From positions 1 through 42,253 of the forward strand of contig CAYHEQ010000004.1 of assembly GCA_964355795.1 (NCBI GenBank): 42,253 nt of DNA, read 5' to 3'. This document shows, piece after piece, positions 23,906-42,253 of this stretch. Source of the stretch: an uncultured Candidatus Saccharibacteria bacterium. GTDB lineage: Bacteria; Patescibacteriota; JACPGU01. The position numbers and the translations under genes are program-made. How positions within the stretch are numbered: the stretch's first letter is position 1; the number at the start of each line of letters is the position of its first letter. Under the pieces are notes generated by a model. That model was not told the DNA's origin and searched no databases. It saw nothing but the letters and a program-made list of their open reading frames with translations.

Positions 23906-23979
23906 AACATCGGGACTCAGTTGGTTAGAGCACAGCACTCATAACGCTGAGGTCGTGGGTTCGATCCCCGCCCCTGGTA
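23906..23979 (+). pseudogene. tRNA-Met(CAT)-like copy with a damaged 5' acceptor/D region
   Basis: From the D loop onward it is a good tRNA (agttggtta-gagc, ctCATaa, gtggg-ttcgatc-cccgc, 3' acceptor ccctggt). The 5' 12 nt (aacatcgggactc) pair with it at only 4 of 7 acceptor positions. Confidence 0.45.
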
Positions 23980-36169: not shown

Positions 36170-38953
36170 CTACTTCGCCTCTTGCCAATTTTTGCCCATC
36201 CCGCTATCAACAATTATCGGACATTTGAGCTGGAAAACATTTTCCATGATTTTCTTAATTTTTTCAGACAGAGCGCGCTCTGTCTCTACGGGGATTTCGA
36301 AAACCAGTTCGTCATGCACTTGCAGAATCATTTTCACTTCGGGATTTTTGGACAAAATCTGCCGGTCAATTTCTATCATCGCCAGTTTGATAATGTCCGC
36401 GGCGGTGCCTTGAATCGGCATATTGATAGCCATTCGCTCGGCCGATTTGCGGATTTGCATATTGGGCGAATTGATATCGGGAGTGGGACGACGCCGTCCC
36501 AGCAAGGTCTGGACATAGCCGTGTTCTTTGGCAAATTCAATCGTCTCGCTAAGATAATCTCTGACGCCAGAAAAATTTTCAAAGTATTGATCAATGAATT
36601 CTTTGGCCTCCTTTGGATCGACATCAATGGATTGAGCCAACCCATAGGCGCTCATGCCGTAGAGGATGCCGAAATTGACCACTTTGGCCATCCGTCTCTG
36701 GTCTTTTGTCACCTTGTCTGCCTCAACATGAAAGACGGCCATGGCGGTCTCGGTATGAATATCGCGCCCGTCTTTGAACGCTTGCAACATTTTCCTATCC
36801 CCCGATAAATGCGCGGCAACCCGTAGCTCGATTTGCGAATAGTCAAAAACCATCAGCGTTTGCCCTTTTTCGGCGACAAAAGCCCCACGGATTTGTTGCC
36901 CCCATTCGGCGGAGGCCGGAATATTTTGTAGGTTGGGGTCGGTAGAAGACAGCCGTCCCGTCGCTGCGATGGTCTGACTGAAATTAGTATGAATCCGCCC
37001 ATCCATGGGATTGACTGCTTTGGGTAGCGCCTCCAGATAAGTATTTTGTAATTTGGAAAGCTCCCGATATGCCAAAATAGGCTCAATGATAGGGTGGGCG
37101 CCTTTTAATTTTTCCAGCTCTCCGGCGGCGGTAGAAAGACCGGTTTTATTTTTTTTAATCAATTCTGACGAGATTTTTAATTTTTGGAACAAAACTTCCG
37201 CCATCTGCGAGGGAGAAGCGATATTGAAATCCGACCCCGCGAGTTTATGAATCTTTTTTTCCAGCTCTTTGATTTTCTCCGCAACTATCCGCGATATCTT
37301 GTGAAGTTTTTCCGCGTCAATCCGCACCCCGTGCCACTCCATATCAGACAGGACTCGCAAGAGAGGCATTTCCACATCATAAAAGACATCGCTGATTTTT
37401 CCCGTCAATCTCTTCTTCAACAATTCGTACAGTCGCCAAGTAAAATCCGCGTCCTCGGTGGCGTATTGGGTCGCCTCATTGATATCGGTGTCGGCAAAAG
37501 ATTTTTGTTTGGCGCCTGTGCCAATCAATTGTGAAATCGGAATCATCTGGTGCCCGAATTCTATGAAAGCCAGATTGTCCAAAGAATGACCTCGACGAAC
37601 AGGGTCAAGACAATATGATGCCAACATCGTGTCAAAATAGATACCTGCCATTTTTACACCCGCTTTGCGGATAGCCAATAGATCATATTTTATATTTTGG
37701 CCAATCTTCCTTATCTTTTCGTCTTCAAGAATGAGTCGGAGCGTTTCCATGACCAATTTCTTCGGCAACTGTTGGCCCACCGTATGCCCCACCGGGATAT
37801 AATACCCCTCGCCCAACTTCCAAGAAAACGACAGCCCCACCAACTCCGAATTGAGTGCCCCCAAGTCCGAGGTCTCGGTATCAATGGCGAACTCCTTTTG
37901 CTTTTTCAATTCTTTCAGAAACTCGCCGAAAGATTTCTGGTCATTAACGAGTTTGTATTTGTGGTTTCGTAGAGGCAGGTGATTACCTGCCTTCTTTCTG
38001 GGCAGATTATTATCTGCCCCTACGGAATCAAACAATGTCTGCTCACCCTCTACTGGCTTCTTGCCCATCAGCTTCAACAACCTCGGCATCAGCGAGCGGA
38101 ATTCGTATTTTTGGAAAATAGCGGTGGCGTTTTTGAAATCCACATCATGCAAGACACAGGCTGGCAGGTCCAATTTGATCGGCGCGTTGAGATTGATGGT
38201 CGCCAATTTCTGCGATAGGTAAGCGTTGCCTTTGTCTATCGCTAATTTGTCGCGAATACTATCAGACATCGCGAATTTTCCCGAATCAATCGCAGAGTAG
38301 ACCCCATCCAGCGTCTTATATTTCTGCAACAAATCGGTAGCGGTCTTCTCGCCAATGCCCTTCACACCAGGAATATTATCCGACGCGTCGCCTCGCAGGG
38401 CTTTGTAGTCCACGACTTGCGAAGGCGTTAGCCCCATTTTTTCTACCACTCCTTTTTCATCATAAATAATGGTGTCCTTGATGCCTTTTTTCAAAGTATA
38501 GACAAAAGTATTTTTGTCCACCAGTTGCAAGGTGTCCATATCGCCAGTAACGATATAAGTATCCACACCAAGATTTTTACCATCTATTTTGTGACAGAGC
38601 GTCCCAATGAGGTCATCAGCCTCGTATCCTTGCAATTCAAATATCGGCACATTAAGCGAGGTCAGCACCTCTTTGGTCATCGGGATCTGCTCGTAAAGTT
38701 CATCTGGCGCTTTGACCCGCGTCGCCTTGTATTCTTTGTACTCTTCGTGCCGAAAAGTCGGTCCCGCCATATCAAAAGTCGCCGTGATATAATCCGGCCC
38801 GACATCTTCAATGGCCTTCAGCAAAGTGGCCGTGAACCCGTATACCGCCCCTATTGATTTCCCGTCCTTCGTCCGCAAATTAGGGATAGCGTGATACGAG
38901 CGATGGACAAGAGCGTTGGAGTCAATTAAAAGGAATTTTTTTTTCTTGGTCAT
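36170..38953 (-). CDS. polA: DNA polymerase I
   Basis: 5' nuclease (LLIDSNALVHRSYHA, GDASDNIPGVKGIGEKTA), 3'-5' exonuclease (FAIDTETS) and polymerase motifs A/B/C (DYSQIELR, RRMAKVVNFGILYG, QVHDE). Confidence 0.97.
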   Translation of the reverse strand: MTKKKKFLLIDSNALVHRSYHAIPNLRTKDGKSIGAVYGFTATLLKAIEDVGPDYITATFDMAGPTFRHEEYKEYKATRVKAPDELYEQIPMTKEVLTSLNVPIFELQGYEADDLIGTLCHKIDGKNLGVDTYIVTGDMDTLQLVDKNTFVYTLKKGIKDTIIYDEKGVVEKMGLTPSQVVDYKALRGDASDNIPGVKGIGEKTATDLLQKYKTLDGVYSAIDSGKFAMSDSIRDKLAIDKGNAYLSQKLATINLNAPIKLDLPACVLHDVDFKNATAIFQKYEFRSLMPRLLKLMGKKPVEGEQTLFDSVGADNNLPRKKAGNHLPLRNHKYKLVNDQKSFGEFLKELKKQKEFAIDTETSDLGALNSELVGLSFSWKLGEGYYIPVGHTVGQQLPKKLVMETLRLILEDEKIRKIGQNIKYDLLAIRKAGVKMAGIYFDTMLASYCLDPVRRGHSLDNLAFIEFGHQMIPISQLIGTGAKQKSFADTDINEATQYATEDADFTWRLYELLKKRLTGKISDVFYDVEMPLLRVLSDMEWHGVRIDAEKLHKISRIVAEKIKELEKKIHKLAGSDFNIASPSQMAEVLFQKLKISSELIKKNKTGLSTAAGELEKLKGAHPIIEPILAYRELSKLQNTYLEALPKAVNPMDGRIHTNFSQTIAATGRLSSTDPNLQNIPASAEWGQQIRGAFVAEKGQTLMVFDYSQIELRVAAHLSGDRKMLQAFKDGRDIHTETAMAVFHVEADKVTKDQRRMAKVVNFGILYGMSAYGLAQSIDVDPKEAKEFIDQYFENFSGVRDYLSETIEFAKEHGYVQTLLGRRRPTPDINSPNMQIRKSAERMAINMPIQGTAADIIKLAMIEIDRQILSKNPEVKMILQVHDELVFEIPVETERALSEKIKKIMENVFQLKCPIIVDSGMGKNWQEAK

Positions 38954-39008
38954 GAAGCTCCTCGAGTGTAATCACGAGAGGTTTCGTAGGAAATCGCGAC
39001 CTTGCCTG

Positions 39009-39028
39009 TTCCGACCGTAGCGTCGGAA
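39009..39028. repeat. CCGAC..GTCGG hairpin in the polA leader
   Basis: ttccgac-cgtagc-gtcggaa. The loop is the reverse complement of the loop at 15878-15883. Confidence 0.65.
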
Positions 39029-39141
39029 GGGAGCGAAGCGGAATCCCCCGAAGCAGATTTCGAGACCAACACTGGGTTATTTCTAAATATTTTTCTCAAC
39101 ACATGCCTCGCTTAAACACAAATCTATATTGCGAAGGGTGG

Positions 39142-39279
39142 ATAGATTATGGCATTAGTTGCTATAATCTATTATACTAGATTGTGAAGAATATCAAAAT
39201 GTCGGATGTAGCATCCGACTAGCACAAAAACACTCAACACATAATCTTTATGCGAGATATCTTCACATAAAGACGAGTT
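39142..39279 (+). repeat. conserved left block, copy 1 (bidirectional promoter-like region plus hairpins)
   Basis: 39142-39203 aligns to 41353-41414 and 39244-39279 aligns to 41470-41505. Contains tgctataat (+), TTGATA-15-TATAAT on the minus strand facing polA, and the hairpin ctttatgcgag...cacataaag. Confidence 0.8.
39200..39225 (+). repeat. TGTCGGATGTAGCATCCGACTAGCAC hairpin element, copy 2
   Basis: Identical to 13704-13729. It occupies the slot where the 41.4-kb copy of the block has a different hairpin. Confidence 0.85.
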
Positions 39280-39300
39280 CTGCAAAATCGAGTTTGAATT
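39277..39300. repeat. cassette-1 left inverted repeat
   Basis: The rc of gttctgcaaaatcgagtttgaatt matches 40017-40029 (13 bp) and 40047-40053 (7 bp). Confidence 0.8.
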
Positions 39301-39331
39301 ATATCTATATAAACGCAATTATTTTTTACTT

Positions 39332-40018
39332 ATGGCAACAAAACAATCAATGGAGTTTTTCGGTGAAGCCCTTTTATCATATTTTTTGGGTGGCCGAGAA
39401 AAATTTTATTTTAAAATGCCTTCCGGCGAAATATACGAACACCACCTAAAAAGATATTTTAGAAAGGCCACCCAAATAGCAAAATCAGAAAGAAAATTAA
39501 TTTCTTTGTCTTATGGCGACATTTTGGACGTTGGCTGTGCTACGAGCAATTATACTGCTCTGCTATCTAAGCGTGGAAAAGTTCTTGGTATTGATATATC
39601 CAAAAATGTCACCGATGTGGCTAAAATGGCTGGCCGAAAAGATTGTATTGTTGCGGATATTTTTACTTTTAAACCAAAGAAAAAATACGATACTATTACT
39701 TTTCTCGAGAACAATCTCGGCCTTGGCGGTTCTGTAGATAAGACAAAGAAATTATTGAAAAAAGTTTCATCTATATTGAAAGATGATGGTCAAATTCTGG
39801 CCGTATCAAAACAGTTAAACAACCAAAAATACTTTGTCAGAAAACTAACACCTATATGGAAGAAAAAAGTTGGGCCAGAATTTGCCTGGATCAACTTCAA
39901 TATAGATTTTCTTTCTGATTTATGCAAAAAGGAGGGGCTTCACCTTGAGCTTTTACAGGCAAATCGGTATACTTATCTAATAAGAATCGTAAAAAATAAA
40001 TTGCTTAAAAGGAAATAA
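39332..40018 (+). CDS. class I SAM-dependent methyltransferase
   Basis: Motif I ILDVGCATSNYTALL, then VLGIDIS and DTITFLENNLG. Confidence 0.8.
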   Translation: MATKQSMEFFGEALLSYFLGGREKFYFKMPSGEIYEHHLKRYFRKATQIAKSERKLISLSYGDILDVGCATSNYTALLSKRGKVLGIDISKNVTDVAKMAGRKDCIVADIFTFKPKKKYDTITFLENNLGLGGSVDKTKKLLKKVSSILKDDGQILAVSKQLNNQKYFVRKLTPIWKKKVGPEFAWINFNIDFLSDLCKKEGLHLELLQANRYTYLIRIVKNKLLKRK

Positions 40019-40053
40019 TTCAAACTCGACTCAAGCCCTTCGGGTCGCAGAAC
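40017..40053. repeat. cassette-1 right inverted repeat with a 16-nt insert
   Basis: aattcaaactcga[ctcaagcccttcgggt]cgcagaac. Confidence 0.8.
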
Positions 40054-40186
40054 ACGGTATATCTGGCTCAGAAATATGACGTATTTAATATTTATTGTTT
40101 GTCATATTTCTTCGACCCATATTTCAGGCTCTTTTCTACATTTAATATTGAATCGAGCCAGAAACATCAGATATACCGAAACATTA
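40051..40186 (+). repeat. conserved right element, copy 1 (11-bp terminal inverted repeats)
   Basis: aacaCGGTATATCTGgct...agaaatatgac/gtcatatttct inner hairpin...gagccagaaacatCAGATATACCGaaacatta. Confidence 0.8.
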
Positions 40187-40229
40187 TACGAAAGAGCAAA
40201 TTTTTTTTCTATCAATTAAGCAAATCAAT

Positions 40230-40475
40230 ATGAAACAAGTTTGGAAATTATTTTGGGATATATCTGCCGTAGTTATTGGTCTGTATTTTGGGTATAAAGT
40301 GTTCATTTATTCAGGTGAACATATTCCGGCTTTTGGATATTTCCCAATAGGATTAATATTTGGACTTTTCGTTTTGGGTATTGTTGCTTATTCCGTTCAC
40401 GGATTAGAGTTGCTTTTTAGTTGGGTTCTTTTCAAATTGTTTAGAATTAGAACGGAAGATGATTTGCCATTTTAA
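40230..40475 (+). CDS. hypothetical small membrane protein
   Basis: 81 aa with two or three hydrophobic helices. Confidence 0.5.
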   Translation: MKQVWKLFWDISAVVIGLYFGYKVFIYSGEHIPAFGYFPIGLIFGLFVLGIVAYSVHGLELLFSWVLFKLFRIRTEDDLPF

Positions 40476-40508
40476 TAATAGTTAAAAAATTTGCTCCATC
40501 GTATTCTA

Positions 40509-40551
40509 TGCTAGTCGGATGCCTGCCTGCGCAGGCAGGCTACATCTGACA
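40509..40551 (-). repeat. TGTCGGATG..CATCCGACTAGCA element, copy 3, with an 18-nt palindrome inserted in the loop
   Basis: tgctagtcggatg[cctgcctgcgcaggcagg]ctacatctgaca is the rc of the 39200 element, with 1 mismatch plus a perfect palindromic insert. Confidence 0.8.
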
Positions 40552-40658
40552 GGCAAAGGATGTCTCTTGACGCGTATATGCATTGCATATACAATGTATA
40601 TATATGACAAAATCCAAATGCCAAAGCTCAAATGTCAAATAATACTAATTCCAAGACT

Positions 40659-40973
40659 ATGAATGCCGTCATTAATTTCAAGACCGACAAAAAGATCAAG
40701 ACAGAGGCGCAGAAGATCGCGGGACAAATGGGGCTCACCCTCTCTGATGTGATGAATCTTTATTTGAGAGAGTTTATCGTGAAAAAGGAGTTGCTTGTTA
40801 CTGCCCACCAAGATGAATCGCGACCCTCAAAGATGCTCCTTGGCGCGATAAAAGAATCCAGAAGAAACCTCCGAGATGGTGATATTTCTCCCGCTTTTTC
40901 CAACGCCAAAAACGCTATTTCTTGGCTCAATAGCAAAAACAAAAAGTTCCAAAACGGCAAAATATGCCGCTAA
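40659..40973 (+). CDS. RelB/DinJ-family antitoxin (second copy)
   Basis: MNAVINFKTDKKIKTEAQKIAGQMGLTLSDVMNLYLREFI parallels the 31773 protein from its first residue. The track start at 40632 adds 9 residues. Confidence 0.8.
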   Translation: MNAVINFKTDKKIKTEAQKIAGQMGLTLSDVMNLYLREFIVKKELLVTAHQDESRPSKMLLGAIKESRRNLRDGDISPAFSNAKNAISWLNSKNKKFQNGKICR

Positions 40974-41230
40974 TCAGATTTGATAAGAAGTTTGTCAAAC
41001 AATACGATAAAGCAGATCCACAAATCCGCTGGTCTTTTGATAGAAGATTAGAGTTATTAATGACCAACAAAAACAGTCCTCTACTGGGACTGCACAAGCT
41101 CCATGGTCAATATTCGGGTTGTTGGAGCATAAATATTACTGGTGACTGGAGGGCTATTTTTCAAGAGATAAATGAGCAACAAACTATTTTTTTCATCGCC
41201 ATCGGCACTCACAGCCAGCTATATAAATAA
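40964..41230 (+). CDS. RelE/YafQ-family toxin (second copy)
   Basis: FDKKFVKQYDK...HKLHGQYSGCWSINITGDWRAIFQ...IFFIAIGTHSQLYK. Overlaps the antitoxin by 10 nt. Confidence 0.8.
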   Translation: MPLIRFDKKFVKQYDKADPQIRWSFDRRLELLMTNKNSPLLGLHKLHGQYSGCWSINITGDWRAIFQEINEQQTIFFIAIGTHSQLYK

Positions 41231-41252
41231 ATCTGCCCCGATTAAAATTCGC

Positions 41253-41354
41253 CTAAAATTGACCATCTCTAGTGCGCAGATTGGGTATCGCGTGATACGC
41301 CCGATGGACAAGGGCGTTGGAATCAATTAAGAGAAATCTTTTCTTCTTGGGCAT
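41253..41354 (-). pseudogene. displaced remnant of the polA 5' end
   Basis: Encodes MPKKKRFLLIDSNALVHRAYHAIPNLRTRDGQF*, compared with PolA MTKKKKFLLIDSNALVHRSYHAIPNLRTKDGKS. Confidence 0.8.
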
Positions 41355-41505
41355 AGATTATAGCTTTACTGGCTAGAATCTATTATACTAGATTGTGGGT
41401 AATATCAAAATGTCAGGACAGAGTCCCTGCTCGCATGGGATGACGATTACCTATAATACCCGACATACCATCTTTATGCGAAATATCTTCGCATAAAGAC
41501 GAGTT
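41353..41505 (+). repeat. conserved left block, copy 2
   Basis: Aligns to 39142-39279, with a different central hairpin and the perfect hairpin ctttatgcgaa-atatc-ttcgcataaag (41472-41498). Confidence 0.8.
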
Positions 41506-41543
41506 ATCGGATATATTGCTCTTTTAAAACGAATACTTTTGGG
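41503..41543. repeat. cassette-2 left inverted repeat
   Basis: The rc of gttatcggatatattgctcttttaaaacgaatacttttggg matches 41919-41936, 41967-41976 and 41980-41989. Confidence 0.8.
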
Positions 41544-41579
41544 AAGCTCTACAACACCAAATATAAGGAGGGTTCTAAA

Positions 41580-41870
41580 GTGTCGATTGAAAAACAGAAT
41601 GAAGTTTATGTCAGTGATGGAAAGGGCGGAAAAATCGTGGTTCGCCCCGGAGACAAAGTAACACTTTTGCCTCCAAAGGAAGGTGACGAAGAGGAAGGAT
41701 ACTTGTCGAAAAAACACCACGATTTTCTTCAGCGGTTTCTTGATGGACCAGGCCATTACGAAATATCATGGATAGGCCTGTGGCCATGTGGGAGAGCAAT
41801 GCTTTACCTGAAACTGACACACGGACGAGAACCCGGAGCTCACGTTTCCAAGTTCCAGTGCGCCGCATGA
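41580..41870 (+). CDS. hypothetical protein
   Basis: GTG start, with AAGGAGGG 7 nt upstream. 96 aa. No family recognised. Confidence 0.55.
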   Translation: MSIEKQNEVYVSDGKGGKIVVRPGDKVTLLPPKEGDEEEGYLSKKHHDFLQRFLDGPGHYEISWIGLWPCGRAMLYLKLTHGREPGAHVSKFQCAA

Positions 41871-41918
41871 AAAGCAATCGTTTCAAACTAGGGGGAGACC
41901 GCTTCCGTCTCCCCGCTT

Positions 41919-41989
41919 CCCAAAAGTATTCGTTTTGCTGGCTAAGTCGCCAGCAGGCTAACGCCTAAAAGAGCAAGACATCCGATAAC
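41919..41989. repeat. cassette-2 right inverted repeat with a 30-nt two-hairpin insert
   Basis: cccaaaagtattcgtttt[gctggctaagtcgccagc aggctaacgcct]aaaagagcaa gac atccgataac. Confidence 0.8.
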
Positions 41990-42102
41990 ACGGTATATCT
42001 GGCTACGGTTTGCTAAGTCGCAAACCTGCGCCCATATCTATGCTCTTCCTATATCAACTTAATTTTGTAGCGAGCCTAGACATCAGATATACCGAAACAT
42101 TA
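41987..42102 (+). repeat. conserved right element, copy 2
   Basis: aacaCGGTATATCTGgct...ggtttgc-taagtc-gcaaacc inner hairpin...cgagcctagacatCAGATATACCGaaacatta. Confidence 0.8.
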
Positions 42103-42253
42103 TCTGGAAATCGCGCCCTCGCCTCGTCCTTCGCTCTCGCTACGGACACGGCTTCAGTCGCTCTGATTTCCAGATAACGGCTTCGGAAATAATTCCGTGT
42201 TCTCTTCGTCGCTCCTTCGCCTTCGGCTCCGGTCGCGACATCAGATAACACGG

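Follow-up and report, generated by a model that had tools for sequence, protein, structure and literature searches.

A probable integron-like gene-cassette array beside polA in a Patescibacteria chromosome

Integrons are the classic gene-capture device and are defined by an integrase whose insertion reads the extrahelical bases of the folded attC site. Xer recombinases provide further precedents; the folded single strand of CTX phage mimics a duplex site and is integrated as a hairpin by XerCD, and in streptococci the site difSL adjoins the recombinase gene xerS. Here we describe a locus at the end of a 42,253-nt stretch of DNA (contig CAYHEQ010000004.1 of assembly GCA_964355795.1; the whole stretch is called the window below), in which two unrelated genes beside polA are each framed by the same conserved left block (L, copies L1 and L2) and right element (R, copies R1 and R2), as well as by long inverted repeats of their own. 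A reading of this DNA from its letters alone (the sequence-only reading) had offered three accounts of the arrangement, namely invertible cassettes, cassette exchange by a recombination system, and pairing of 5' and 3' untranslated regions (UTRs) in RNA. Our analysis bears out the second, and we consider it highly probable that the region is a chromosomal cassette array of an integron-like site-specific recombination system widespread in Patescibacteria; the evidence consists of oriented arrays, complementarity between the two ends of each cassette, a unit duplicated exactly from GTT to GTT, and the linkage of a recombinase to an attI-type site. A limited literature search found no description of integron-like arrays in Patescibacteria (candidate phyla radiation, CPR), and the IntegronFinder 2.0 census makes no mention of Patescibacteria/CPR phyla.

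The attC-like site R and the linked recombinase

R1 (40051-40187, plus strand) is attC-like and consists, in this order, of AAC (40051-40053), an 11-nt 5' arm (40055-40065), hairpin A, CCCATAT, hairpin B, ACATC, an 11-nt 3' arm (40168-40178), AAAC (40179-40182) and A|TT (40183-40185). The corresponding parts of R2 (41987-42103, plus strand) are AAC 41987-41989, 5' arm 41991-42001, 3' arm 42084-42094, AAAC 42095-42098 and A|TT 42099-42101. The two copies agree at every position of their ends (18 nt and 24 nt) but not in their interiors. No further copy of the conserved L and R blocks was found in the 42-kb window, and none of 100 shuffles gave a match. The sequence-only reading had proposed a search of other genomes for the right element, and this search found the family beyond the window, so R is not a one-off local duplicate. 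A scan for the exact pattern of the two arms of R, using one genome per species, returned nine loci in nine species-level genomes, all of Patescibacteria type, and 0 matches in a viral contig collection. Across the family R is about 86-135 nt long; the 3' half of R1 is 97% identical to a site in locus L011 (related loci carry such numbers here), and R2 agrees at 94% with a site in L009 along 129 nt. Conservation extends beyond the search pattern, the family reading xxxTAAC|ACGGTATATCTGG..hairpin A..CCCATAT..hairpin B..ACATCAGATATACCGAAAC|(G/A)TTAxxxxAAAT. Two of the nine R-holding genomes (L003 and L011) are labelled as metagenome-assembled genomes of 'uncultured Gammaproteobacteria', yet their sites and the L011 recombinase are of Patescibacteria type, and the exact L011 recombinase protein is annotated elsewhere as 'Patescibacteria group bacterium'; mis-binning or mislabelling is likely.

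Looser scans revealed several R sites per locus; these share one strand, are spaced at 300-1400 nt and have ORFs of the same orientation between them. Regular-expression and stem scans, in which strand and side served as internal controls, gave 33 sites for tabulation, and all 33, together with nearly all flanking ORFs in 10 loci, were co-oriented. The general form of the site is ...NNNNAAC|A-[11-bp stem]...[11-bp stem]-AAAC|GTT-NNNN-GAAAT, where the closing stem (L box) is always exactly 11 bp and is followed by a conserved G.T, and where the tail (A/G)AAC|GTT is constant while the stem sequence itself varies freely (CGGTATATCTG, CTGCGTATGCG, GCGAGTATACG, CCGAGTATCTG, CGGAATAAGCG and others). 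Other identities considered for R were dropped in view of the multiple diverged copies at each locus, the arrays and the link to a recombinase; these were a group I or II intron with an ORF in a peripheral loop, a housekeeping noncoding RNA split by an insertion, and a leader or riboswitch of the downstream gene, the last suggested by the one exact match per genome in the initial scan.

The repeats that bracket each gene begin at the GTT right of L and end at the AAC left of R. When the six variable nucleotides after GTT were compared with the six before AAC, the two ends of the same cassette were complementary at a mean of 5.1/6 positions, compared to 3.06/6 for pairs of ends not belonging together (n=552). 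On this sequence evidence, the inverted repeats around a gene are one site, that of the cassette itself, cut in two where the crossover falls. Nineteen sites were then aligned as they would be written in the circular cassette, in fixed-register mini-alignments, and 95.5% of the cells were paired, with changes on both sides in 11 of 20 pairs; this pairing was reached in 0 of 500 shuffles, and slid controls were 15-40% paired. The helix next to the AAC and GTT ends (R box), which was not used in site finding, was 91% paired, with five of its nine pairs compensatory. The AAC and TT are invariant across sites. Preceding TT, G is found downstream of L and of most sites, and A downstream of R1, R2 and all L009 sites; this base therefore belongs to the upstream element, so that the crossover falls at (G/A)|TT or inside the unvarying TT.

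The bottom (non-coding) strand folded better than the top strand in 29/33 sites, with a mean difference of 2.3 kcal/mol (p = 1.5e-6), and the same was found for the circularised sites of the two window cassettes described below. This suggests that the folded bottom strand may be the recombination substrate, as in integrons, and it counts against a structure selected in mRNA. An RNA-level function, in which UTR pairing and the structure of R would form processing or stabilising stems or terminator/promoter modules in mRNA and the repeats would have spread passively, accords with the UUCG-type loops of the inserted hairpins, with the precise bracketing of ORFs, with the strong folding of R as RNA (z = -6 to -8) and with the resemblance of some hairpin-B sequences to extended -10 promoters. 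However, Rfam gave nothing relevant at E <= 10 across 38900-42253, and an RNA-level function leaves unexplained the invariant AAC/GTT, the base before TT that travels with the upstream site, the duplication running from GTT to GTT, the link to recombinase and attI, and the ORF-less units of the same anatomy. Since, moreover, the unit boundaries are those of a DNA crossover, RNA pairing as the primary function is not upheld and we regard it as very unlikely. RNAalifold applied to a MAFFT alignment of whole R recovered the closing stem alone, and the interior aligns poorly.

In four of the nine genome loci (L006, L007, L010 and L011) a divergent tyrosine recombinase of 270-276 aa is encoded at the start of the array on the opposite strand, and the four proteins are 43-52% identical to each other. 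A metagenome scan with the recombinase alignment provided 80 loci. By a strict site scan, recombinases at least 50% identical to the query had 15 R sites on the opposite strand in 43.8 kb upstream, two upstream on their own strand, and 0 in 56.6 kb downstream; around more distant recombinases R matches were at background level, without orientation bias. A conserved attI junction, TTCG(N)ATAA(A)AACGA|GTTNNNNGAAAT, precedes the recombinase genes at a distance of about 100-150 nt; it was seen in L006, L007, L010, L011, L012-L023, L028 and L029, and the junction box is often preceded, 5 nt away, by its own inverted copy.

Rearrangement of cassettes is visible in the assembled loci. In L007, array positions 1 and 7 hold 100% identical copies of a 191-nt unit, a mini-cassette without an ORF together with its site; the unit follows ...CACTA|GTT beside the recombinase gene at position 1 and ...GGAAC|GTT at position 7, and the identity runs exactly from GTT to the next GTT. 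The first cassette beside attI in L022 has 45-nt arms that are homologous to those of the second window cassette (c2), with three compensated differences, and bears an unrelated ORF. Likewise, the tag GTTCTGCAAAAT...GCAGAAC of the first window cassette (c1) recurs on a different gene in L092, the locus of the closest relative by PolA. The cargo comprises toxin-antitoxin pairs, a methyltransferase and small ORFs without assigned function, which is typical of chromosomal integrons.

These observations are accommodated by a mechanism in which R is the equivalent of attC, with an R box (...NNNNAAC with GTTNNNN...), a single A opposite AAAC, an 11-bp L box and a variable three-way junction. By analogy with integrons, two successive sites would cross over at (G/A)|TT and release a cassette circle, in which the R end ...CCGAAACA would be joined to the cassette's own start TT... 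and the bracketing arms would flank R, pairing as one long hairpin or extended R box. Insertion at the attI-type 3' end of L (...ACGAG|TT) would linearise the circle at that point, and because it is opened at the crossover the gene would come to lie between the arms of its own inverted repeat, L to the left and R to the right of it. The recombinase responsible would be the 270-aa XerA/IntI-like tyrosine recombinase found beside attI in related loci, which in this genome would act in trans or would have been lost. We infer that the array-linked recombinase catalyses these steps on a single-stranded substrate and that the system is currently active in this genome.

The recombinases of L006, L007, L010 and L011 score 206-211 bits on the integron integrase model TIGR02249 (cut-off 265) and match it in two stretches, and the array-linked recombinases match NF040815 (XerA / "integron integrase") about at its cut-off. 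Compared to VchIntIA (2a3v), residues 9-177 correspond to 9-181 and residues 199-270 to 246-317, so that about 45 residues of the IntI insertion are absent; the proteins align end to end with archaeal XerA and have the C-terminal ...SPL in common with IntI. Smyshlyaev et al. (2021; PMC8138268) treat the CPR recombinases as an Xer-related subgroup, "Cand", and describe the IntI insertion as essential for integron function. An alternative reading is that the recombinase is the housekeeping Xer of the cell ('Cand'), that an 11-6-11 palindrome in L (TCTTTATGCGA-GATATC-TTCACATAAAGA) is a chromosomal dif-like site, and that the cassettes are tiny elements that exploit Xer as folded single strands in the manner of integrative mobile elements exploiting Xer (IMEX), a primordial integron. 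The full-length alignment with XerA without the IntI insertion, the frequency of the family in Patescibacteria, often under the annotation XerD, and the position of this 28-bp dif-like palindrome beside the insertion point all speak for it, and the xerS/difSL adjacency and the hairpin integration of CTX phage by XerCD, mentioned above, are its precedents. On the other hand, the cassette junction lies 4 nt outside the palindrome and not in its central region, arrays also occur far from any recombinase gene (the window and L009), and two such palindromes are present in the window. We therefore judge this alternative unlikely.

Several points weigh against the integron-like interpretation that we prefer. 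The linked recombinase lacks the insertion on which attC recombination by classical IntI depends; its family is very large in Patescibacteria, where its members are annotated as XerD, tyrosine recombinase or "integron integrase", and may be housekeeping Xer, in which case the adjacency to arrays needs another reading. As the sequence-only reading had noted, no recombinase gene is present in the window; tblastn with the array-linked family recombinases and Pfam on 29 ORFs found none in the 42-kb window and a 1.4-kb extension of it, nor was there one within 10 kb on either side of polA in the closest PolA relative. Neither excised circles nor empty sites nor polymorphism among reads were observed. 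Furthermore, the third cassette and the relB/yafQ unit of the window (see below) are without R. The covariation of the L-box helix is partly circular, given that the site patterns require the L-box stem, and many sites share descent, so that the statistics overcount independent events.

Cassettes of the window and their bracketing arms

Cassette c1 (39278-40053, plus strand) carries an ORF for an S-adenosylmethionine-dependent methyltransferase (39332-40018) between its own complementary arms, the left arm at 39277-39302 and the right arm in two parts (40015-40029 and 40047-40053) with an inserted GC-rich UUCG hairpin (40030-40046) between them. Cassette c2 (41504-41989, plus strand) carries a 96-aa ORF without assigned function (41580-41870) between 45-nt arms of its own, the left at 41503-41547 and the right at 41915-41936 and 41966-41989, with a hairpin insert at 41937-41965. 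The limits that the sequence-only reading had assigned to both L blocks, to the R elements and to the bracketing repeats were right exactly or to within a few bases; it was also correct that the bracketing repeats differ between the two cassettes (39277-39302/40015-40053 in c1, 41503-41547/41915-41989 in c2), that an inserted hairpin breaks each right arm, and that the junctions GACGAG|TT and AAC|ACGG are identical in both units. In contrast, its notion of L, gene and R as one repeated unit was not borne out, since L turned out to be a chromosomal insertion site fused to the polA promoter and duplicated by a scar, as described in the next section.

The arms, which at 26-45 nt are unusually long for integron-type cassettes, continue well past the 9-bp core and fall into two classes. 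In class A, a fixed 2-nt mismatch (GAAAT opposite ACATC) is followed by 15-35 nt of further pairing, as in c2 and in cassettes of L011, L010, L007 and L009. In class B, a GC-rich insert (...CGCTCGGGTC) occupies the position of the mismatch and pairing resumes beyond it, as in c1 and one L006 cassette. Because arms of these classes also occur in L006, L007, L009, L010 and L011, long arms are a general feature of the family and not specific to the window. The circularised sites of c1 and c2 fold as hairpins of 214 nt and 229 nt, respectively.

Long inverted repeats around a gene also invite the reading that a recombinase flips the gene between them and so switches it on or off relative to a promoter in L; every gene indeed lies between inverted repeats of 26-45 nt, and TGCTATAAT in L1 is directed into the cassette. 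Nevertheless, 33/33 sites and nearly all cassette ORFs are co-oriented, two independent assemblies of the locus give one orientation, a good -10 element is absent from L2 and from the L block of L092, and the repeats always start with GTT and end with AAC beside R, as for a split attC-type site. With the repeats read as the halves of one split site, invertible cassettes are an account to which we attach hardly any probability.

The cassette that follows directly after R1 (cassette 3; 40184-40504, plus strand) encodes a predicted membrane protein of 81 aa (40230-40475) within a 34-nt inverted repeat (arms 40186-40219 and 40471-40504). Its proper right arm ends ...GCTCCATCGTAT, and the end of the cassette reads ...CCATCGTAT|TCT instead of ...AAC|ACGG, its own R being absent. 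Judging by this junction, the site of cassette 3 has apparently been deleted, fusing the cassette to the adjacent relB/yafQ toxin-antitoxin unit (40505-41257, plus strand), which has its own promoter, TTGACG-17-TACAAT, at 40567-40595. Just upstream of that promoter, at 40509-40550, lies an inverted copy of the L1 hairpin, TGCTAGTCGGATGC...CTACATCTGACA, which is interrupted by a GC palindrome of 17 nt, CTGCCTGCGCAGGCAGG, that also occurs in L031 (835-853).

Downstream of R2, an ORF-less GC-rich segment (42100-42253, plus strand) has complementary ends, TTATCTGG... and ...CAGATAAC, the latter ending at 42249, and an inner perfect inverted repeat (42100-42112/42165-42177). The bottom strand of 42172-42203 forms a minimal inverted site, AAC-A-CGGAA-TTAT-TTCCG-AAGCC-GTT, nested before the next R. 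The end of the window had been taken for the start of a further unit, and this holds in part; it is not an identical unit, as 42237-42253 comprises the R''-type end CAGATAAC of the ORF-less segment and then a third R (R3). R3 was revealed by extending the contig past 42253, as the sequence-only reading had advised, on L001, which is the same contig from another assembly and extends 1464 nt past the window end. Its AAC lies at 42247-42249, the site runs 79 nt past the window, and its stem is different and compensated, CGGAATAAG/CTTATTCCG.

GC-rich modules with CTTCG/CGCT sequences recur throughout the region (38954-39141, 42106-42240 and 40030-40046) and in the right arms of many L003-L008 sites. 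They occupy fixed positions, 9 nt from AAC in class B right arms and between the polA ATG and L1, have motifs in common, for example GGAAATCGCG(A/C)CCT(T/C)GCCT, and resemble small insertion modules or miniature inverted-repeat transposable elements (MITEs). In addition, one and the same loop is carried by two different stems, GCTGGC-TAAGTC-GCCAGC in the c2 insert (41937-41954) and GGTTTGC-TAAGTC-GCAAACC in hairpin A of R2 (42007-42026), and the loop is kept in the L009 homologue (site at 2988); judged by its sequence, it may be a protein-binding loop.

The attI-type site at the polA promoter and its second copy

The window is ordinary chromosome of an ultra-small bacterium of Patescibacteria/Microgenomates type from Hainich groundwater, and its genes, examined with Pfam on the 29 ORFs, include aminoacyl-tRNA synthetases, GroEL, EF-P, RuvA, RNase J, PNPase, TsaD, holA and polA. 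The array is bounded by the housekeeping gene polA (36170-38953, minus strand; ORF of 927 aa), which is transcribed away from it. Homologues of the window polA are DNA polymerase I of Microgenomates/Patescibacteria, 81% and 63% identical, and the synteny of polA with holA, FemAB and TsaD agrees with that of the relatives. At the gathering threshold, Rfam identified tRNAs only in the window, and a tRNA/tmRNA scan found none in the cassette region. A weak fourth tRNA-like Rfam match (33.8 bits) stands at 23912-23975 beside the tRNA-Ile/Met/Met cluster, where ARAGORN makes no call.

L1 (39142-39279, plus strand) begins with a hairpin (39142-39172) and, as repeat comparison and junction match indicate, is an attI-type site fused to the polA promoter region. 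It contains the minus-strand TATAAT of the polA promoter and, 11-6-11, an inverted pair of recombinase-box-like 11-mers (39245-39273), which are those of the palindrome named above and are followed by CGAG|TT; the cassette junction is between 39277 and 39278, 4 nt outside the palindrome. This junction, TTCACATAAAGACGA|GTT, fits the attI consensus TTCG(N)ATAA(A/G)ACGA|GTT beside the recombinases of L012, L017, L018, L020 and L029, and AAAACACTCAACA(C/T)ATAA is common to L1 and the attI of L012. L2 (41353-41505, plus strand) is a second such site, TCTTTATGCGAA-ATATC-TTCGCATAAAGACGAG|TT, with the junction between 41503 and 41504, and the layout of its 3' end, TCTTTATGCGAA-ATATC-TTCGCATAAAGACGA|GTT, is the same as at the recombinase-adjacent junctions (box, 5 nt, box, ACGA|GTT). 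Because junction and box layout match the sites beside recombinases, L can be assigned as an attI-type site by sequence. L1 and L2 are 84-87% identical in sub-blocks.

The L block of a relative was found through the closest PolA homologue, 81% identical, in Microgenomates GCA_016188915.1 (L092), where polA directly adjoins L; there ...CATAAAAACGA|GTT comes after the block, then a single cassette whose 95-aa ORF is unrelated, and finally an R whose 3' arm has decayed. Hence the L|GTT junction is known in three versions (L1, L2 and L092), each with a first cassette unrelated to the other two, as an insertion site would be expected to show, and cassettes have turned over at L. The more distant PolA relative (63% identical) has no array at polA, and when L1, L2 and the GC-rich inserts were compared by BLAST with all 89 retrieved loci, no block resembling L appeared except in the polA lineage.

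The sequence-only reading had seen a plus-strand promoter-like motif in the left block that points into the cassette, and this stands for L1 only. L1 carries TGCTATAAT, part of a promoter-like TGGATA-18-TATAAT with a TG motif that is directed into the array, whereas L2 has TGGCTAGAAT at that place and L2 and L092 have the weaker TAGAAT. Promoter-like sites in the cassette region were not more numerous than in shuffles. Both L copies contain terminator-like hairpins followed by ATTTTGAT on the minus strand (39201-39219 and 41414-41429), with different stems, just upstream of the minus-strand TATAAT facing polA; these hairpins probably insulate polA from antisense transcription leaving the array.

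Between the ATG of polA and L1 lies a GC-rich insertion of 188 nt (38954-39141), recognised by sequence comparison, which is missing from L2 and from the relative L092, where the ATG directly adjoins L. The insertion and 42106-42129 have a 24-nt motif in common.

The second copy of L is explained by a remnant of polA. Directly abutting L2 is a 97-nt copy of the polA 5' end (polA'; 41258-41354, minus strand), which spans the initial ~32 codons of a related lineage's polA and is 79% identical to the 5' end of the window polA. Together, polA' and L2 are colinear with L092 over 243 nt at 84% identity, compared to only 72-74% for polA and L1, and since they are closer to L092 than polA/L1 is, the segment polA'-L2-c2-R2 is, on sequence comparison, a remnant of a related lineage left by recombination, and the second L a scar and not part of the mobile unit. 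An incoming segment with whole polA, L1, c1, R1, cassette 3 and relB/yafQ would have been joined illegitimately inside the resident polA, or the reverse. The 35-nt tail preceding polA' (41225-41259), with which the relB/yafQ unit ends, matches the end of an L009 cassette that runs directly into an R 94% identical to R2.

The presence of L in duplicate, with a polA fragment as scar, together with the MITE-like GC-rich inserts at 38954-39141 and in the right arms, could also be taken to mean that the whole region is a one-off segmental duplication, or a set of MITE-like or repetitive extragenic palindromic (REP)-like intergenic repeats without cassette function. The occurrence of R in many distant genomes, the complementarity rule, the oriented arrays starting from a recombinase gene and the exact unit boundaries do not fit that account; the R-family results refute it as a full explanation, and with a minimal probability overall it survives solely for the second copy of L.

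Some further variation was seen around polA. In PolA relatives the far side of the gene (L092 1-6237, L094 836-7499) holds a Mur ligase and type IV secretion-like genes (TrbL_3, PrgI, TraC-like and TraG P-loop), and in the window the array and the contig end occupy the polA side that holds these secretion-like genes in the relatives. Moreover, the locus was also assembled from a further replicate sample of the same well (L002), and 17 positions differ between it and the window; 14 of them, all transitions, cluster in L2 (41399-41485), which could reflect strain variation, conversion of one L copy by the other, or a chimeric assembly.

Significance and comparison with known systems

An integron-like platform without the IntI insertion and with another site geometry bears on the origin of integrons from Xer recombinases. 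The array may belong to a widespread gene-capture platform of Patescibacteria that predates classical integrons or is independent of them, and in which an unmodified Xer-type ('Cand') recombinase, possibly the cell's own dimer-resolution enzyme, captures single-gene circles via large folded attC-like hairpins at a dif-like attI; we put this forward tentatively, as an idea with a fair deal speaking for it but somewhat short of an even chance. If true, it would be a living example of the transition from Xer to IntI or a convergent reinvention of the integron, and a major route of gene flux in ultra-small symbiotic bacteria. The integron-like interpretation would, in addition, assign a function to the very large CPR recombinase family now annotated "XerD / integron integrase / tyrosine recombinase", and would reveal a mechanism of gene turnover in genomes of ~1 Mb that are held to be streamlined. 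The conserved ends of R, AACACGGTATATCTGG ... ACATCAGATATACCGAAAC, may serve as primers or probes to collect CPR cassettes from metagenomes, and standard integron finders probably overlook the system because they require the IntI-specific domain.

Among described mobile repeats, the structured intergenic repeats of the REP type and their bacterial interspersed mosaic elements (BIMEs), repeats mobilised by REP-associated tyrosine transposases (RAYTs), and MITEs are similar in lying between co-oriented genes, but they are without cassette-specific complementarity, crossover triplets, attI or a tyrosine recombinase, and REPs are linked to HUH transposases. Invertons and shufflons would show both orientations, which were not seen in the two independent assemblies or in any of the loci, all of which are co-oriented. 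The pdif modules of Acinetobacter plasmids resemble the array in that inverted repeats attributed to Xer-type recombination enclose single genes or toxin-antitoxin pairs; however, pdif sites are the same conserved 28-bp sites in alternating orientation, while here the repeats are cassette-specific and the R elements are all direct.

Xer/dif systems, among them the single-recombinase systems XerA, XerH and XerS/difSL, and the elements that exploit them (IMEX) come closer, with a short Xer-type enzyme, 11-bp arms and a dif-like 11-6-11 palindrome, which L has at 39245-39273; in related loci the site also adjoins the recombinase gene, as difSL does xerS. In contrast to the few phage- or island-sized elements of those systems, many single-gene cassettes stand in arrays here, the crossover would lie outside the palindrome, and each cassette has a structured site of ~100 nt with AAC/GTT logic.

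The greatest likeness is to integrons, sedentary chromosomal integrons and clusters of attC sites lacking integron-integrases (CALINs). In common with these, related loci have a divergent tyrosine recombinase beside an attI-type site, the arrays are co-oriented with each cassette consisting of an ORF and a structured site whose structure is conserved while its sequence varies, and the AAC...GTT is invariant, with a crossover at G|TT and a cassette start complementary to the inverse core of its own site. Likewise shared are duplicated cassettes at attI, a cargo of toxin-antitoxin pairs and unassigned ORFs, the bottom strand as the better folder, and the resemblance of sites within the same array, as for the Vibrio cholerae repeats (VCRs) in Vibrio. 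The differences concern enzyme, site and setting; the recombinase has no IntI insertion (~45 aa missing compared to VchIntIA) and scores below the TIGR02249 cut-off, and the window attI adjoins polA and not an integrase. The L box here is a perfect 11-bp stem in which extrahelical bases are not evident, the central region has 1 nt opposite 4 nt as compared to roughly 5-6 opposite 5-6 in integrons, the R box has 9 bp, a fixed 2-nt mismatch or GC-rich insert and up to 35 more bp, and the three-way junction carries the conserved CCCATAT and ACATC.

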